The notes under the pieces were generated by a model, which saw only the letters and a list, made by a program, of their open reading frames with translations, was not told the DNA's origin and did not search any database. From an uncultured Pseudomonadota bacterium (GTDB taxonomy: Bacteria; Oederibacteriota; Muellerivitia; Muellerivitales; Muellerivitaceae), in contig CAVYRH010000011.1 of assembly GCA_963770835.1 (NCBI GenBank), forward strand, positions 64,001 to 128,000: a stretch of DNA of 64,000 bases, written 5' to 3'. A program made the position numbers and the translations under genes. How positions within the stretch are numbered: the first letter of the stretch is position 1; every line of letters begins with the position of its first letter. Positions 27,271-48,433 of this stretch are shown piece after piece.

Positions 27271-27348
27271 GCGTATCTTTTAGTGTCACATGCGTGTCAA
27301 ACTCAGTTATGGCTCCTTTGCCAATGTAGGGGTTATAATTTACCCACT

Positions 27349-27654
27349 ATGAGCCCGATGATCACTTTGGACGAATTGGCCTTGGCCGACTTTTGCAAGA
27401 AACGCCATGTCCGAAAGCTTTCGCTTTTCGGGTCAGCGGTGCGTGCCGATTTCAAACCCGGTAGCGACCTCGACCTCTTGGTGGAGTTCGACCCGGGCCA
27501 CACTCCCGGTCTTGCCTTCTTCTCCCTGGCCGAAGAGCTTTCAGCCTTCTTTGGCCGCAAGGTGGATTTAAATACTTCCCGTTCCTTAAGCCCCTACTTC
27601 CGGGACCAGGCTCTTGCCGAGTCCGAAATCCTCTATGACTCGGCACGACCCTAA
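27349..27654 (+). CDS. Minimal nucleotidyltransferase (MNT) antitoxin
   Basis: LFGSAVRADFKPGSDLDLLVEF; GRKVDL. Confidence 0.9.
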   Translation: MSPMITLDELALADFCKKRHVRKLSLFGSAVRADFKPGSDLDLLVEFDPGHTPGLAFFSLAEELSAFFGRKVDLNTSRSLSPYFRDQALAESEILYDSARP

Positions 27655-27985
27655 AGTTTCATTCCTGCAAATGCGGGACACAGTCCAAGAAGTCGTTACC
27701 CTCACCCAGAAGAAAACCCACGACGATCTTCTCAAGGACCGTGTTTTGAACCTTGCCTTAACCCGCCTTTTGGAAGTCCTGGGCGAAGCCGCCACACGCG
27801 TTCCCGAAGAATTCCGCAAGAAATACCCCGGGCTTCCTTGGCAGCAGGTCATCGGGCTAAGAAACAGGCTTATCCACGCCTACGACCAGGTAGACCTCGA
27901 AATCCTTTGGGAAATTGTCTCGGAAGACCTACCACCTTTATCCAAGAATTTGGACCAAATTATTCAAAATTGGGGCGCGGAGTGA
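27635..27985 (+). CDS. HEPN (DUF86) toxin
   Basis: GEAA; PWQQVIGLRNRLIHAY (RX4H motif). Confidence 0.9.
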   Translation: MTRHDPKVSFLQMRDTVQEVVTLTQKKTHDDLLKDRVLNLALTRLLEVLGEAATRVPEEFRKKYPGLPWQQVIGLRNRLIHAYDQVDLEILWEIVSEDLPPLSKNLDQIIQNWGAE

Positions 27986-28148
27986 TAACCATCGCCAACC
28001 GCGACGAGGCCCACGGCCGGGGCGTTTCTACCGACGTCATCGAGGCCTCGGCGAAAGCTTACGTCAACGCGGTCAACAAGCTCATGTTGAAGCACAAGGC
28101 CAAGAGCGCCAAGGCGGCCTTTGATATCCAGAAGGGCTTAAGCTTTAG
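27982..28148 (+). repeat. Long duplicate of the leuA 3' end (~165 bp)
   Basis: Encodes DEAHGRGVSTDVIEASAKAYVNAVNKLMLKHKAKSAKAAFDIQKGL, as at 26951-27092. Confidence 0.95.
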
Positions 28149-29860: not shown

Positions 29861-29884
29861 AGTTTTGAAAAGGGTAAAAGCCTT

Positions 29885-29910
29885 GTCCACGACGGGGACC
29901 CATCGTGGAC
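29885..29910 (+). repeat. Palindromic array site 1 (intron-occupied)
   Basis: GTCCACGACGGGGACCCATCGTGGAC. Confidence 0.9.
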
Positions 29911-30463
29911 ATCGTGCCAGAGGAGGGTTTGCAGAGCCAGCAGGTGAGGGAGTAGGCCGATGAGGGTCAACCCAAGTCCTGACCAGGTAATCACCAGAGA
30001 GCCTGGAAGTCAGCCCCCGGCGTAGGATCGAGAGGTCCTGCCCGAAACGGGGTCATAAACCTCATTTAGTGAGGGAACAATCCAGCAGTCCGCAACATCA
30101 AGTGAATCCTGCCGCTTCGTGAATGGGACACCGAAAGGTGCAAGGGGATGCCGAGCCGCGTGTCTACTGGCGAAGGCCACGATCCCGCTGAAGAATCTGG
30201 TAGCAAGCGGGGCAAGTCCTCCGGAGTATGGGGAACGGAATGTTGGAAAGGCTATGCAAGCAAGCTGGGAGATCCTACCCGCCAAAAGACTTGCCGCTAT
30301 AAGGCTAAAACCGAAAAGAGGCAAGGGTGGGAGGAAGTCGGAGGGGGTCACAGTACCGATGAAGGGGTGGACAACAAAACCACCCTGAGGGAAGGACCCC
30401 TGCTTCAACCATGTGTCTCAAAGAAGGTAGGCGCTGGAGCATGCCCCAAAAGGGCCAACAACT

Positions 30464-31986
30464 GATATGAATGAGCCAGTCAAGCCCGCTGGTTTTTCCT
30501 TTGGTTTTATCCTACTCTTTTCCACCTCAAGGCCCTGCGAAAAGCCCTGATCTCGAAAGCCCGGCTTGTTTCGACGATGAATCAAACTGATATTCGCGTG
30601 TTAGACCCATTGCTGGTTCCAGGGACGCAAGATTTTCATTCGTCGGGAGCTGCCTCGATCTCTGATCGTGGGTCGTCGCAGGCTTAGGCCTTTGCGCCAC
30701 AGAGTTGTACCGAGGGTTCTCCAAATCGTTGCCAAGCTTCCGGAAACAGGGTTCTTCCTTCATGACCTTGTTAAACCATTCCTGTTGTTTCCTGGGCGAT
30801 GGCCCACACAAATCCAGCCAACTCCCGGGCTACGGCCACCACTACTTTTTGGATGGGCTTGTTACGTTGGGTCATTTTTAGAAACTTTTTGTACAGACGA
30901 TCCTGTGCTCTGCGGGCGATCTTTAAAATCTCCACCGGACAACCCTCCCGCCTTTTTTCTAAAACCACGCCGACCGACTTCCCATGGCGGTAACTCCAAG
31001 CCGATTCCACAAGAATCCGTCTCAAATGGGCGTTCCCGGTCTTGGTGATTCCTCCCCGACGGATTTTTCCACCTGAACTGCTTTCACATATCCCCAAACC
31101 CGCGTAACCCATGAAATTACGAGCGCTCTCAAATCGCCTCAAATCTTGGCCTTCCACCGCCAAGGTCATGGCGCTCAAGGTATCAACCCCTTTCAGGCAC
31201 CTCAAATGCTTGACCAGTTTCCTGTAGGGTTCTTGGCTGGCCATCTCCTCCACTCGGCTCGTCAAACTCCTCAACCGCTCATCTGCCTCTTGCTTCCCGC
31301 GGACATATGCCTCGAAAGTCTCATGCAGTTCCAGAGGTTCGAACTTTTGGGTTTTCAGCCATGCCTCATGGGCTGATCTCCAATTCTTAGCTTCTCGAAA
31401 GATACGACCTTGCCGAAGAAAGAAATTCGACAACCGGTGCCGGGCCTTTTGCCGGTCTTCTAGGGCATCCTCACGAACTCGAACCAGATCCCGACAGGCT
31501 TCCTCTTGGATGGTCGGAACCCGCACTTCCGTCAGCTCTCCCGCCCTCCAAAGACGGGCCAACTTTTCCGCATCTCGGCGGTCTGTCTTCACCCGATCCC
31601 CGGCTTTCACTGGAATTTTCCCAGGGGCGATTACGACGCACTTCAACCCCTTTTGGGTTAATTGCCGGTGGATGTCATATCCACAAGGGCCCGCCTCGTA
31701 CACAAACGTTATTGACCCTCGTCCTTCGTACTTACCCAGCATTTTCCCCAATGCTTTTGGGGTGTTCTCGATTGTAAAAATATCCTTCACATTTTCGGCC
31801 CTAGCCGGCAGGACCGCACCTACCACCGTATCCTTATGGACATCCAACCCGACCACCGTGATATTATTTTCCATGAGCCAGCCCTCCGTATGCGGATAGG
31901 CTCCCTCAAGGAGCAACCCGCGAATTAGGGCCCTTCAACAAGGCCCGTTTTATTTTACGCAGGCCGCTGGCTCATTCATGTTATCT
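30464..31986 (-). mobile_element. IS110-family element, IS1111-type
   Basis: 13-bp subterminal inverted repeats ATGAATGAGCCAG / CTGGCTCATTCAT; CT core at both ends; ends defined by comparison with the uninterrupted intron copies. Confidence 0.9.
30771..31874 (-). CDS. IS110 transposase (DEDD RuvC-like)
   Basis: VGLDVHK; YEAGPCG; KTDRRDA; SSGG...GITKTGN..LR. Confidence 0.93.
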   Translation of the reverse strand: MENNITVVGLDVHKDTVVGAVLPARAENVKDIFTIENTPKALGKMLGKYEGRGSITFVYEAGPCGYDIHRQLTQKGLKCVVIAPGKIPVKAGDRVKTDRRDAEKLARLWRAGELTEVRVPTIQEEACRDLVRVREDALEDRQKARHRLSNFFLRQGRIFREAKNWRSAHEAWLKTQKFEPLELHETFEAYVRGKQEADERLRSLTSRVEEMASQEPYRKLVKHLRCLKGVDTLSAMTLAVEGQDLRRFESARNFMGYAGLGICESSSGGKIRRGGITKTGNAHLRRILVESAWSYRHGKSVGVVLEKRREGCPVEILKIARRAQDRLYKKFLKMTQRNKPIQKVVVAVARELAGFVWAIAQETTGMV

Positions 31987-32271
31987 CTGTAGTACCAAAG
32001 CGCGAGGCCTTTGACAACAGGCACTATGCCGAGCGGCCAAGGGGGAAGTCGAACCTGTAAAGCCGCCGGAGGAGAGGTTGTCGGAAAGCCGTATGATCGA
32101 AAAGGTCACGTACGGTTTGACGAGGGGGCGCTGGAAACGAAGTGATGAGGGAACCTCGTTGGGGCACGGAACCGGAAACGGGGAAACAGATCAAGGAACC
32201 CTCTGCACACCATCGCGCCAGTGCTCTACTCTGCAAGGAAAATTGAAAACGGTTAAGCGCAAAGGAAGGGC

Positions 32272-41773: not shown

Positions 41774-41786
41774 TAATTTTCCGGTT

Positions 41787-43423: not shown

Positions 43424-45405
43424 ATCGTGCCAGGAACAAGGGTGTAGAAGCCAGCAGGTGAGGCTTGATATAAGCCGAGTCCTGACGGGGTAACCGCCTG
43501 AGGGCCCCGAAGTCAGCCTCCGTGGCAAGGTCGAGAGGCCTTGCCCGAAACGAGGTCATAAACCTTCGATTAGGAAGGGAACAATCTTACAGTCCGCAAC
43601 ATCAAGTGAATCCTGCCGCGTCGTGAAGAGTCCGCCGAAAGGCGTAAGAGGAGGCCGAGCCTCGTGTCCACGGGCGAAGGCAACAATCTCACCCTCAATA
43701 CAGGATGGGGTGGGGCGAATCCTCCGGCGTATAGGGAACGGAATGTGGGAAAGGCTGCTACATCAACCTGGGAGATCCTACCCGCCAAAAGACTTGCCGC
43801 TATAAGGCTAAAACCGAAAAGTGGTAAGGGTGGGAGGAAGTCGGAGGGGGCAGTAGTACCGATGAAGGGAAGACAACAAAACTTCCCGGAGGGAAGGGCC
43901 CCTGCTTCAACCAAGCAACCAAAAGAAGTGGAGCATGGAGAATGCCTGAAAAGGCTAACAACTCAGAAGACCAAGTGCGCCAATTCCAGAGGGAGCTATA
44001 TCGAGCGGCCAAGAGGAGCCCGAACCGACGCTTTCATGCGTTATACGACAAGCTCACCCGGTGGGACGTGCTTGTGGAGTCATGGAATCAGGTAAGGGCA
44101 AACCAAGGGCATGGTGGGGTGGATGGAAAGAGTTTGGAGGATATAGAGAAAGAGGGTGTAGGACTCTTTCTCCGGCAAATCCGGGAAGAACTCAGAGCGG
44201 GGACGTATCGGCCACAACCGGTCAAGCGGGTAGAAATACCGAAACCGGATGGCGGAAAGCGGCCACTTGGAATACCGGTTATTCGGGATCGTGTGGTACA
44301 AGCCGCCTGTCGTAAGATGGTCGAACCTATTTTTGAGGCAGATTTCCTGGAAGGTTCCTATGGCTTTCGGCCCAAGCGTTCAGCACATCAAGCTCACGAG
44401 GAAATCCTGAAATGGATAGATCGTGGGTGCAGATTTGTGGTGGATGGAGATATTCGAAAATATTTCGACTCCATTGACCATGCCAAGCTGATGGTGCTGA
44501 TGTGTCAAAGGATCAGTGACAAGAAGATTTTGGAACTCATCCAAAGGTGGCTCGAAGCGGGGGTATTGGCGGAAGGTAGGCTTATGCCCACCTCCGAAGG
44601 TACTCCTCAAGGTGGGGTGATTTCCCCATTACTTTCCAATATTTTCCTTCACCTGTTAGACAAGGTCTGGAACAAAAGATACAAGCAACTTGGAAAACTG
44701 GTGCGTTACGCTGACGATTTTGTGGTGTTATGTCCAACACAACAAAAGGCGGAAGAAAGTCTGAAGGTGCTCAAGAGATTACTTGGGCGGTTGGGGTTGG
44801 AAATGCACCCAGAAAAGACGAGGCTGGTGGAAATGGGACCAGGAAAGGATGGTTTTGATTTCCTTGGTTTCCATTACAGGATATGCCGACCCAATAAGAA
44901 GAGGGGAAAAGCATACATCAAAAGCTGGCCCAAGCGTAAATCCATGGAGAAGATCACTGAGAGGATAAAAGCGGTGACTTCGGAGAAATGGCGGCTGTCG
45001 CTTTCAATGGAAGAATTGGTAAAAACTCTGAATCCGATTTTGAGGGGTTGGGCCAATTATTTCAAAGTGGGGACAAGCTGGAAACAGTTTGATAAGGTGG
45101 ATTTATTTACATACCGAAGGCTATTGTTATTCCGAAGGCGAAAGCATCGTCAGAGGATAATGAATTGGTCGGGGGTCGAAGATGAATTCAAAAGGTTAGG
45201 CCTGTATCGGCTATCTAGACGTGCCATTGTTGCTTGAATGCCGCCGAAATAAAGGTTGTCGGAAAGCCGTATGATCGAAAAGGTCACGTACGGTTTGATG
45301 AGGGGGCACTGGAAACGTGGTTATGAGAGCCGGACTGAGGCCCAATTCGAAAGGGTTGGATTAGCCACCGTACTCTAATGCATACGCGCCAGTGCTCTAC
45401 TCTGC
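43424..45405 (+). mobile_element. RT-encoding group II intron
   Basis: Ribozyme domains around an RT ORF; domain V at ~45263-45296; domain VI ends CTCTACTCTGC. Confidence 0.93.
43942..45237 (+). CDS. ltrA: Group II intron reverse transcriptase/maturase without an endonuclease domain
   Basis: RPLGIP..RDRVVQ; GTPQGGVISPLLSN; YADD; FDFLGF; LRGWANYF; no HNH domain. Confidence 0.95.
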   Translation: MPEKANNSEDQVRQFQRELYRAAKRSPNRRFHALYDKLTRWDVLVESWNQVRANQGHGGVDGKSLEDIEKEGVGLFLRQIREELRAGTYRPQPVKRVEIPKPDGGKRPLGIPVIRDRVVQAACRKMVEPIFEADFLEGSYGFRPKRSAHQAHEEILKWIDRGCRFVVDGDIRKYFDSIDHAKLMVLMCQRISDKKILELIQRWLEAGVLAEGRLMPTSEGTPQGGVISPLLSNIFLHLLDKVWNKRYKQLGKLVRYADDFVVLCPTQQKAEESLKVLKRLLGRLGLEMHPEKTRLVEMGPGKDGFDFLGFHYRICRPNKKRGKAYIKSWPKRKSMEKITERIKAVTSEKWRLSLSMEELVKTLNPILRGWANYFKVGTSWKQFDKVDLFTYRRLLLFRRRKHRQRIMNWSGVEDEFKRLGLYRLSRRAIVA

Positions 45406-45923: not shown

Positions 45924-46724
45924 ATCGTGCCAGAGGAGGGTTTGCAGAGCCAGCAGGTGAGGGAGTAGGCCGATGAGGGTCAACCCAAGTCCTGACCAGG
46001 TAATCACCAGAGAGCCTGGAAGTCAGCCCCCGGCGTAGGATCGAGAGGTCCTGCCCGAAACGGGGTCATAAACCTCATTTAGTGAGGGAACAATCCAGCA
46101 GTCCGCAACATCAAGTGAATCCTGCCGCTTCGTGAATGGGACACCGAAAGGTGCAAGGGGATGCCGAGCCGCGTGTCTACTGGCGAAGGCCACGATCCCG
46201 CTGAAGAATCTGGTAGCAAGCGGGGCAAGTCCTCCGGAGTATGGGGAACGGAATGTTGGAAAGGCTATGCAAGCAAGCTGGGAGATCCTACCCGCCAAAA
46301 GACTTGCCGCTATAAGGCTAAAACCGAAAAGAGGCAAGGGTGGGAGGAAGTCGGAGGGGGTCACAGTACCGATGAAGGGGTGGACAACAAAACCACCCTG
46401 AGGGAAGGACCCCTGCTTCAACCATGTGTCTCAAAGAAGGTAGGCGCTGGAGCATGCCCCAAAAGGGCCAACAACTCTGTAGTACCAAAGCGCGAGGCCT
46501 TTGACAACAGGCACTATGCCGAGCGGCCAAGGGGGAAGTCGAACCTGTAAAGCCGCCGGAGGAGAGGTTGTCGGAAAGCCGTATGATCGAAAAGGTCACG
46601 TACGGTTTGACGAGGGGGCGCTGGAAACGAAGTGATGAGGGAACCTCGTTGGGGCACGGAACCGGAAACGGGGAAACAGATCAAGGAACCCTCTGCACAC
46701 CATCGCGCCAGTGCTCTACTCTGC
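45924..46724 (+). mobile_element. ORF-less group II intron, copy 2 (801 nt)
   Basis: Ribozyme domains retained, RT ORF deleted. Confidence 0.92.
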
Positions 46725-47632: not shown

Positions 47633-48433
47633 ATCGTGCCAGAGGAGGGTTTGCAGAGCCAGCAGGTGAGGGAGTAGGCCGATGAGGGTCAACCCAAGTC
47701 CTGACCAGGTAATCACCAGAGAGCCTGGAAGTCAGCCCCCGGCGTAGGATCGAGAGGTCCTGCCCGAAACGGGGTCATAAACCTCATTTAGTGAGGGAAC
47801 AATCCAGCAGTCCGCAACATCAAGTGAATCCTGCCGCTTCGTGAATGGGACACCGAAAGGTGCAAGGGGATGCCGAGCCGCGTGTCTACTGGCGAAGGCC
47901 ACGATCCCGCTGAAGAATCTGGTAGCAAGCGGGGCAAGTCCTCCGGAGTATGGGGAACGGAATGTTGGAAAGGCTATGCAAGCAAGCTGGGAGATCCTAC
48001 CCGCCAAAAGACTTGCCGCTATAAGGCTAAAACCGAAAAGAGGCAAGGGTGGGAGGAAGTCGGAGGGGGTCACAGTACCGATGAAGGGGTGGACAACAAA
48101 ACCACCCTGAGGGAAGGACCCCTGCTTCAACCATGTGTCTCAAAGAAGGTAGGCGCTGGAGCATGCCCCAAAAGGGCCAACAACTCTGTAGTACCAAAGC
48201 GCGAGGCCTTTGACAACAGGCACTATGCCGAGCGGCCAAGGGGGAAGTCGAACCTGTAAAGCCGCCGGAGGAGAGGTTGTCGGAAAGCCGTATGATCGAA
48301 AAGGTCACGTACGGTTTGACGAGGGGGCGCTGGAAACGAAGTGATGAGGGAACCTCGTTGGGGCACGGAACCGGAAACGGGGAAACAGATCAAGGAACCC
48401 TCTGCACACCATCGCGCCAGTGCTCTACTCTGC
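47633..48433 (+). mobile_element. ORF-less group II intron, copy 3 (801 nt)
   Basis: Appears identical to copy 2. Confidence 0.92.

Follow-up and report, generated by a model that had tools for sequence, protein, structure and literature searches.

The window analysed here, a stretch of 64,000 nt, contains an insertion sequence (IS) lodged in a group II intron, which itself begins 2 nt after a 28-bp palindromic site. The original prediction had read the locus as three nested layers (site, intron, IS), and all three are real. The features of the locus are as follows.

29884..29911, plus strand: 28-bp palindromic site with an 11-6-11 layout, one of 88 copies in the genome
29914..30461, plus strand: 5′ part of an ORF-less group II intron (domains I-III and the start of IV), with Rfam RF02003 at 29968-30100 and ends set by copy comparison
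30436..30461, plus strand: ribosome-binding site of the RT and its start codon (ATG 30441-30443), both retained and predicted to lie in a hairpin where domain IV begins
30462..30463, plus strand: CT core of the target, from filled versus empty copies
30464..31986, minus strand: IS1111-type element, complete, 1523 bp, with 6 identical copies in the genome
30467..30479, minus strand: right subterminal inverted repeat, 13 bp, perfect, with a 3-bp extension outside it
30478..30483, minus strand: predicted -35 box, which comes to lie at 17-bp spacing from a -10 box (31978-31983) only when the element is circular
30771..31874, minus strand: DEDD transposase of the IS110 family, 367 aa, intact (PF01548 and PF02371, NF033542)
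31967..31979, minus strand: left subterminal inverted repeat, with a 7-bp extension outside it
31987..32234, plus strand: remainder of the intron on its 3′ side, comprising the domain IV remnant and domains V-VI, with Rfam RF00029 at 32084-32234

The transposase scores above the curated cut-offs of PF01548, PF02371 and NF033542 (237.6 bits for the last, against a cut-off of 140), which places it in the IS110 family, and its sequence carries D11, E60, D98 and D101 together with an SG motif. Its similarity to IS621 (E 1.7e-4) and to ISCro4 (E 7e-7) is weak. Published descriptions of the IS1111 group list subterminal inverted repeats (STIRs), 7+3 extensions and a circle-junction promoter among its features (PMC11187229; PMC11208160). 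The element studied here has 13-bp repeats, within the 7-17 bp range for IS1111 ends, the 7-bp left and 3-bp right extensions, and the IS1111 layout of non-coding ends, with 307 bp on the right, downstream of the transposase, versus 112 bp on the left. An exact TTGAC -35 box at the 17-bp junction spacing is found in 11 of 15 homologs. No circle joint is listed in the contigs of four DNA runs, which is not evidence of its absence; the IS end has no Rfam match at the gathering threshold, and six RNA runs contained 0.05-0.11 of the words. Judged by the sequence features tested, the element is a member of the IS1111 group of bridge/seekRNA elements.

The matches to RF02003 and RF00029, and the TIGR04416 RT/maturase of full-length relatives, mark the host as a group II intron, 798 nt long without the IS. 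The element is flanked by AACAA-CT on one side and CT-CTGTAG on the other. Comparison with empty copies gives a 2-bp CT core, the second CT (31985-31986) being part of the element's left end, and 10 empty copies of the intron read AACAA-CT-CTGTAG, exactly the insertion site that had been proposed from this locus. The empty joint (30461-31985) is also present in contigs of three of four public DNA runs, the best of which may be the source sample. Folds of five intron variants and an alignment of mini with full-length introns predict the hairpin at the start of domain IV, presumably DIVa; in four of the five folded variants the IS site is predicted to lie within the hairpin's 3′ strand, pairing with the RT ribosome-binding site. 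Internal deletion accounts for the short intron, in which about the first 60 nt downstream of the IS site are still present. An origin of the ORF-less intron through deletion by the IS was rejected, the deletion beginning ~60 nt beyond the IS site.

The genome holds 14 ORF-less introns (10 empty, 3 filled and 1 that a contig end cuts exactly where the IS inserts) together with 6 relatives that encode an RT. All six copies of the IS occupy one intron position, three in ORF-less and three in RT-encoding copies, and this agreement across three intron variants supports the earlier proposal that the element is aimed at a multicopy intron; the outcome that would have spoken against it, other copies at unrelated targets, did not occur. 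At least three independent insertions are needed, because three flank variants carry their own bases beside the junction. In the RT-encoding copies the core straddles codons 7 and 8, and the gene is broken there in three of them. Contig C24 of this genome (G000) stops exactly at the intron's IS insertion point, which suggests a seventh, unassembled IS copy. The window itself contains further members of the intron family.

43427..45405, plus strand: related RT-encoding intron, intact and unoccupied (RT ORF 43942-45237; TIGR04416, 428 bits)
45927..46724, plus strand: empty ORF-less intron copy, with a second empty copy at 47636-48433

The RT-encoding intron at 43427..45405 is a possible helper in trans and a possible further target.

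The non-coding right end of the element holds the predicted guide RNA.

30572..30722, minus strand: predicted bridge/seek RNA core, with a target-binding loop followed by a donor-binding loop
30702..30708, minus strand: first target guide, 4 nt + core + 1 nt, pairing with the element-sense top strand
30660..30665, minus strand: second target guide, 4 nt + core, with the predicted handshake dinucleotide next to it (30658-30659)
30630..30633, minus strand: candidate first donor guide, 4 nt including the core, placed by position only
30585..30593, minus strand: second donor guide (30587-30593) and donor-loop handshake dinucleotide (30585-30586)

The guide had first been taken to be ACAGAGTTGT at 30699-30708. 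Its location was right, and the 7 nt at 30702-30708 do behave as a guide in the comparisons below, but the other 3 nt belong to the scaffold and the length was overstated. CTGATAT, likewise picked out at 30587-30593, is present and corresponds to the second donor guide. On the transposase strand (minus, 30771-31874) the target match precedes the donor match, as the original prediction had it. The second arms that it could not find are accounted for: a target arm exists at 30660-30665, and a candidate donor arm at 30630-30633 is short and placed by position. Within the target loop, the complement of the top strand lies 5′ of the match to the bottom strand on the transposase strand, the same order as in IS1111 seekRNAs, where the top-strand complement comes first (PMC11187229).

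Guide-target correspondence was assessed in a collection of 38 homologous loci. L012-L015 were dropped for want of a parsable right end, and the remaining 34 reduced to 17 distinct guide sets; plasmid homologs (367 records, all below 60% identity) were left out of this test. Guide 1 agreed with the right flank of its own element at 4.64 of 5 positions, compared with 1.93 in shuffled pairings (n=17; two registers were permitted, for real and shuffled pairings equally), and guide 2 matched its own left flank at 2.82 of 4, compared with 1.07 (n=16). The predicted handshake base, which follows the invariant donor guide, was identical to the target base adjoining the core in 15 of 17 sets (0.88; shuffled 0.33). 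None of 10,000 shuffles reached the real score for guide 1, guide 2 or the handshake, although these p-values overstate independence because the homologs are related. The base after the core also covaries (0.62 vs 0.28, p 0.004), whereas the scaffold bases 30699-30701 do not covary with targets (p 0.74, 0.33 and 0.80); a 10-nt guide was rejected, its positions +2 to +4 being without covariation, and the three RT-encoding target introns match these scaffold bases incompletely. An exact 10-mer would occur by chance in 307 nt with a probability of ~6e-4 and a 7-mer with ~0.04, and it is therefore the covariation, not the match itself, that constitutes real evidence. The second donor guide (7 nt) is unchanged in 17/17 sets, the donors being too conserved for covariation. 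In six homologs (L006, L007, L011, L022, L035 and L038) the core of guide 1 lies one position further along the loop than it does here.

Folding the 17 sequences yields two loops, each bounded by a stem, which contain the guide segments. Across 23 named pairs, 98% of cells pair, versus at most 47% in slid controls, but both sides change in just 3 of the 23, and because most are invariant the stem pairs say little on structure; RNAalifold draws some of the second donor guide into a small hairpin. Taken together, the covariation of three separate RNA positions and the conserved two-loop fold support RNA guidance at the level of sequence comparison, and the initial assignment of an RNA-guided IS1111-type element is borne out by the tracking of the homologs' own targets and by this fold. 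The possibility that the matches are coincidental and the protein alone selects the target draws on the shortness of the matches (4-7 nt) and on the fact that 3 of the 10 nt in the ACAGAGTTGT match were indeed coincidental. It would have to accommodate three separate RNA positions that track the target over 17 guide sets, and a nearest other homolog, with an 83% identical transposase, that has other guides and another target, each matching the other; we regard it as highly improbable.

Junctions from outside this genome also fall in introns. Three further ones come from other samples (L002, L003 and run X11), all in this intron family. In L002 and L003, whose transposases are 98% identical to the one described here, one side of the IS is formed by two further intron variants; on the other, towards the 3′ end of the same RT gene, lies a second site that matches the guide. 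RT codon 7 is thus joined to a site near the RT 3′ end, which means that most of the gene has been replaced by the IS or that the assembly is a chimera; the left flank of L002 matches the guide at 2 of 4 positions. An IS630-like element follows the RT stop codon in these two loci (L002:1-600 and L003). Among the loose ends listed for run X11, a variant of the IS is joined to a further intron type. Of the other family genomes, 7 of 30 carry the intron itself; among 13 examined of 14 returned loci, four of them copies from one genome, the guide matched 3 at 8/8, 7 at 7/8 and 3 at 6/8. Of 98 other genomes of the phylum, only 2 yielded close homologs of the IS, whose guides and targets differ. Other-guide homologs L022-L033 (all in G052), L004 and L011 lie in seemingly REP-type repeats, and G052 has nine copies of one element with a common GGGTCAG-type flank.

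The guides specify 4 nt + CT + 4 nt, or 8 guide bases. A perfect 8/8 target occurs once in the 4.58-Mb genome, outside introns, and the occupied targets match at 7/8 each, none at 8/8. Sites matching at 7/8 or better number 84, of which 17 are in introns (11 empty, 6 filled) and 67 elsewhere. Since these 67 match equally well, the guide alone does not wholly account for the intron-only hits, although the idea that the element is aimed at the intron is upheld by where the copies lie. An element that is RNA-guided without being aimed, recognising a short motif while introns dominate as numerous and harmless sites and gene insertions are purged, has two counts in its favour: 50 of the 67 other sites lie in ORFs (crudely called), and half of the non-coding good sites (17/34) lie in introns. 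The probability that three independent hits all fall in introns is ~0.008, rising to ~0.125 if insertions persist at non-coding sites only. Against such an element, the guide is identical to the intact site of relatives' introns, the assessable junctions elsewhere are all in this intron family, even if one has a weak left match, and none of the 17 non-coding sites outside introns is used by the IS in this genome. We consider this explanation unlikely.

The distribution of copies could instead stem from one or two insertions that were spread by intron retrohoming, with the IS as cargo and RT supplied in trans, or by gene conversion. The IS copies do not differ from one another, intact RT genes are present, and two of the filled RT introns are 99.8% identical to each other and lack an empty counterpart; moreover, 3/3 introns of that RT type are filled, versus 3/13 assessable minis (hypergeometric ~0.03). 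Variant-specific bases, however, are found at a distance of 1-2 nt from the junction, a pattern that conversion is unable to create, so at least three insertions are needed and gene conversion as the sole cause was rejected; the IS would also split the predicted RT-start hairpin. Spread of this kind could account for some copies but not for the target choice, and as an overall explanation it seems very unlikely. RNA guidance to the intron thus stands as our preferred reading, in which hairpin, flanking bases or selection against gene insertions probably sharpens the choice beyond the 8 guide bases. The guide is best seen as tuned to a site held constant by both protein coding and RNA structure, with help from context or selection.

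The element has defined ends and an intact transposase, all copies stand at the site, and guides covary with targets. We think it probable that its predicted two-loop bridge RNA directs the transposase to a conserved 10-bp RT-start site of the intron family. By analogy with IS621 and ISEc11, the element would leave as a circle whose joined ends would form a promoter for transposase and RNA; the target loop would pair with both strands about the CT core, the donor loop would pair with the circle junction, and the handshake bases would favour insertion. Insertion would break the RT gene at codons 7-8 in RT-encoding copies and split the predicted RT-start hairpin in all copies, so that filled introns are probably immobile, while the IS would gain a landing pad that is multicopy, self-renewing and nearly harmless.

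Much of this has precedent. ISEc11, ISKpn4, ISPst6 and ISPa11 share with the present element a DEDD transposase, a long non-coding downstream end and 13-bp STIRs (PMC11187229; PMC11208160). IS1111 seekRNA elements likewise have 7+3 extensions, a junction promoter (predicted here) and two short target matches, and among them, too, close relatives are naturally reprogrammed and targets are multicopy (PMC11187229). Their known targets, which span repeats and other mobile DNA, include attC, REP and Tn21 ends (PMC11187229; PMC11208160), whereas here the element goes to the RT start within a group II intron and the RNA is predicted. IS621 resembles this element in its CT core, two loops, four guide segments (the first donor guide being a candidate here) and a donor-loop handshake base that follows the target (PMC11208160; PMC11208158; PMC13626964); handshake pairing with non-cognate DNA has been described for it (PMC11208158). 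It differs in that its RNA lies in the left end and its STIRs are very short, as opposed to the right end and 13-bp STIRs here, and the orientation of target and donor relative to the transposase is opposite. We found no group II intron target of IS1111 or bridge elements in the literature searched, an absence that is weak in that subscription bridge-recombinase papers lay outside its scope. The word 'intron' has no match in the main texts of PMC11208160 and PMC11187229, the part of the PMC11208160 supplements available held only software text and no intron target, and none is mentioned in the accessible portions of bioRxiv 10.64898/2026.10.21.760802, PMC11376236 and PMC13626964. The mechanism is already known, and the intron target alone appears new.

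The outermost layer has an organisation of its own. Further 28-bp sites stand at 41786, 42556, 43397, 45897, 47606 and 48917 of the window, and across the genome neighbouring sites within 5 kb share their orientation in 56 of 58 cases. The longest ORF runs in the site's direction in all 37 short inter-site segments and fills a median of 89% of the segment, and these segments average 44% GC versus 54% for the genome. The sites thus separate single-gene cassettes of like orientation and low GC, which form dispersed arrays. Identical cassette ends recur beside different neighbours, with the switch inside the site, a pattern that may include strain mixing in the assembly. The site is present in 27 of 30 other family genomes and in the one sister-family genome, and in 0 of 67 others in the phylum. 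The bases immediately outside the palindrome show no co-pairing, and 73 of the 88 sites follow the local GC skew, consistent with a leading-strand orientation. Upstream, a small gene pair at 27283-28140, which we take to be nucleotidyltransferase/HEPN-like from its motifs, is followed by a duplicated leuA 3′ end and AT-rich genes up to the 28-bp site; this region looks like an integration scar.

Group IIC-attC introns occur in integron cassette arrays. The 11-6-11 palindrome here presumably lacks the attC core layout, and none of 12 matches to the integron integrase IntI rose above the TIGR02249 cut-off in this 96% complete genome. Among 21 flanking proteins scanned in two relatives, no recombinase gene stood consistently beside the arrays, and one phage-type integrase lay 2 kb from a weak 28-bp site. 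A single-copy Xer-like tyrosine recombinase, below the XerC/XerD cut-offs, is encoded at G000:C11:156053-157114 (L045:4054-5115) and found in 29 of 30 family genomes. As the only conserved single-copy gene of this kind it is a candidate enzyme for the 28-bp site; its co-distribution with the site was not counted as evidence, because any core gene of that order shows the same. We found no clear match for such site arrays in the literature searched, and they are possibly an undescribed integron-like or dif-module-like system. Other mobile elements meet the site as well. A second, distant IS110-family element (~30% identity) abuts it in 4 of 5 copies (G000:C3:45330, C3:81923, C3:103115, C8:165074 and C26:219209), as IS1111-attC elements do, and another group II intron type ends inside it at four places (G000:C3:3682, C11:1972, C20:2071 and C24:24258), immediately 5′ of the ORF-less intron, so that the two introns stand in tandem. 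IS1111-attC elements land at a repeated palindromic site between cassettes, and the site itself is their target (PMC11187229); here it is the second IS110-family element and the intron that land there, whereas the IS targets the intron instead.

A more ambitious reading, which we put forward tentatively and as less likely than its opposite, is that the IS is an RNA-guided hyperparasite on the RT-start hairpin, recognised partly by structure, that brakes intron spread, and that the intron in turn resides in an undescribed, integron-like system of single-gene cassettes found across the family, set apart by 28-bp 11-6-11 sites and shuffled without IntI, possibly by the Xer-like recombinase.

With these results, group II introns would join the natural targets of RNA-guided IS1111 elements, and the locus would provide a clean example from nature in which one mobile element disables another, with 3 of this genome's 6 RT-encoding introns of the family broken. 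The homologs together amount to a compact natural series of reprogrammed elements in which guide positions and a handshake base have been mapped, and which is useful for mining bridge recombinases. The cassette arrays around the element may prove the larger discovery.
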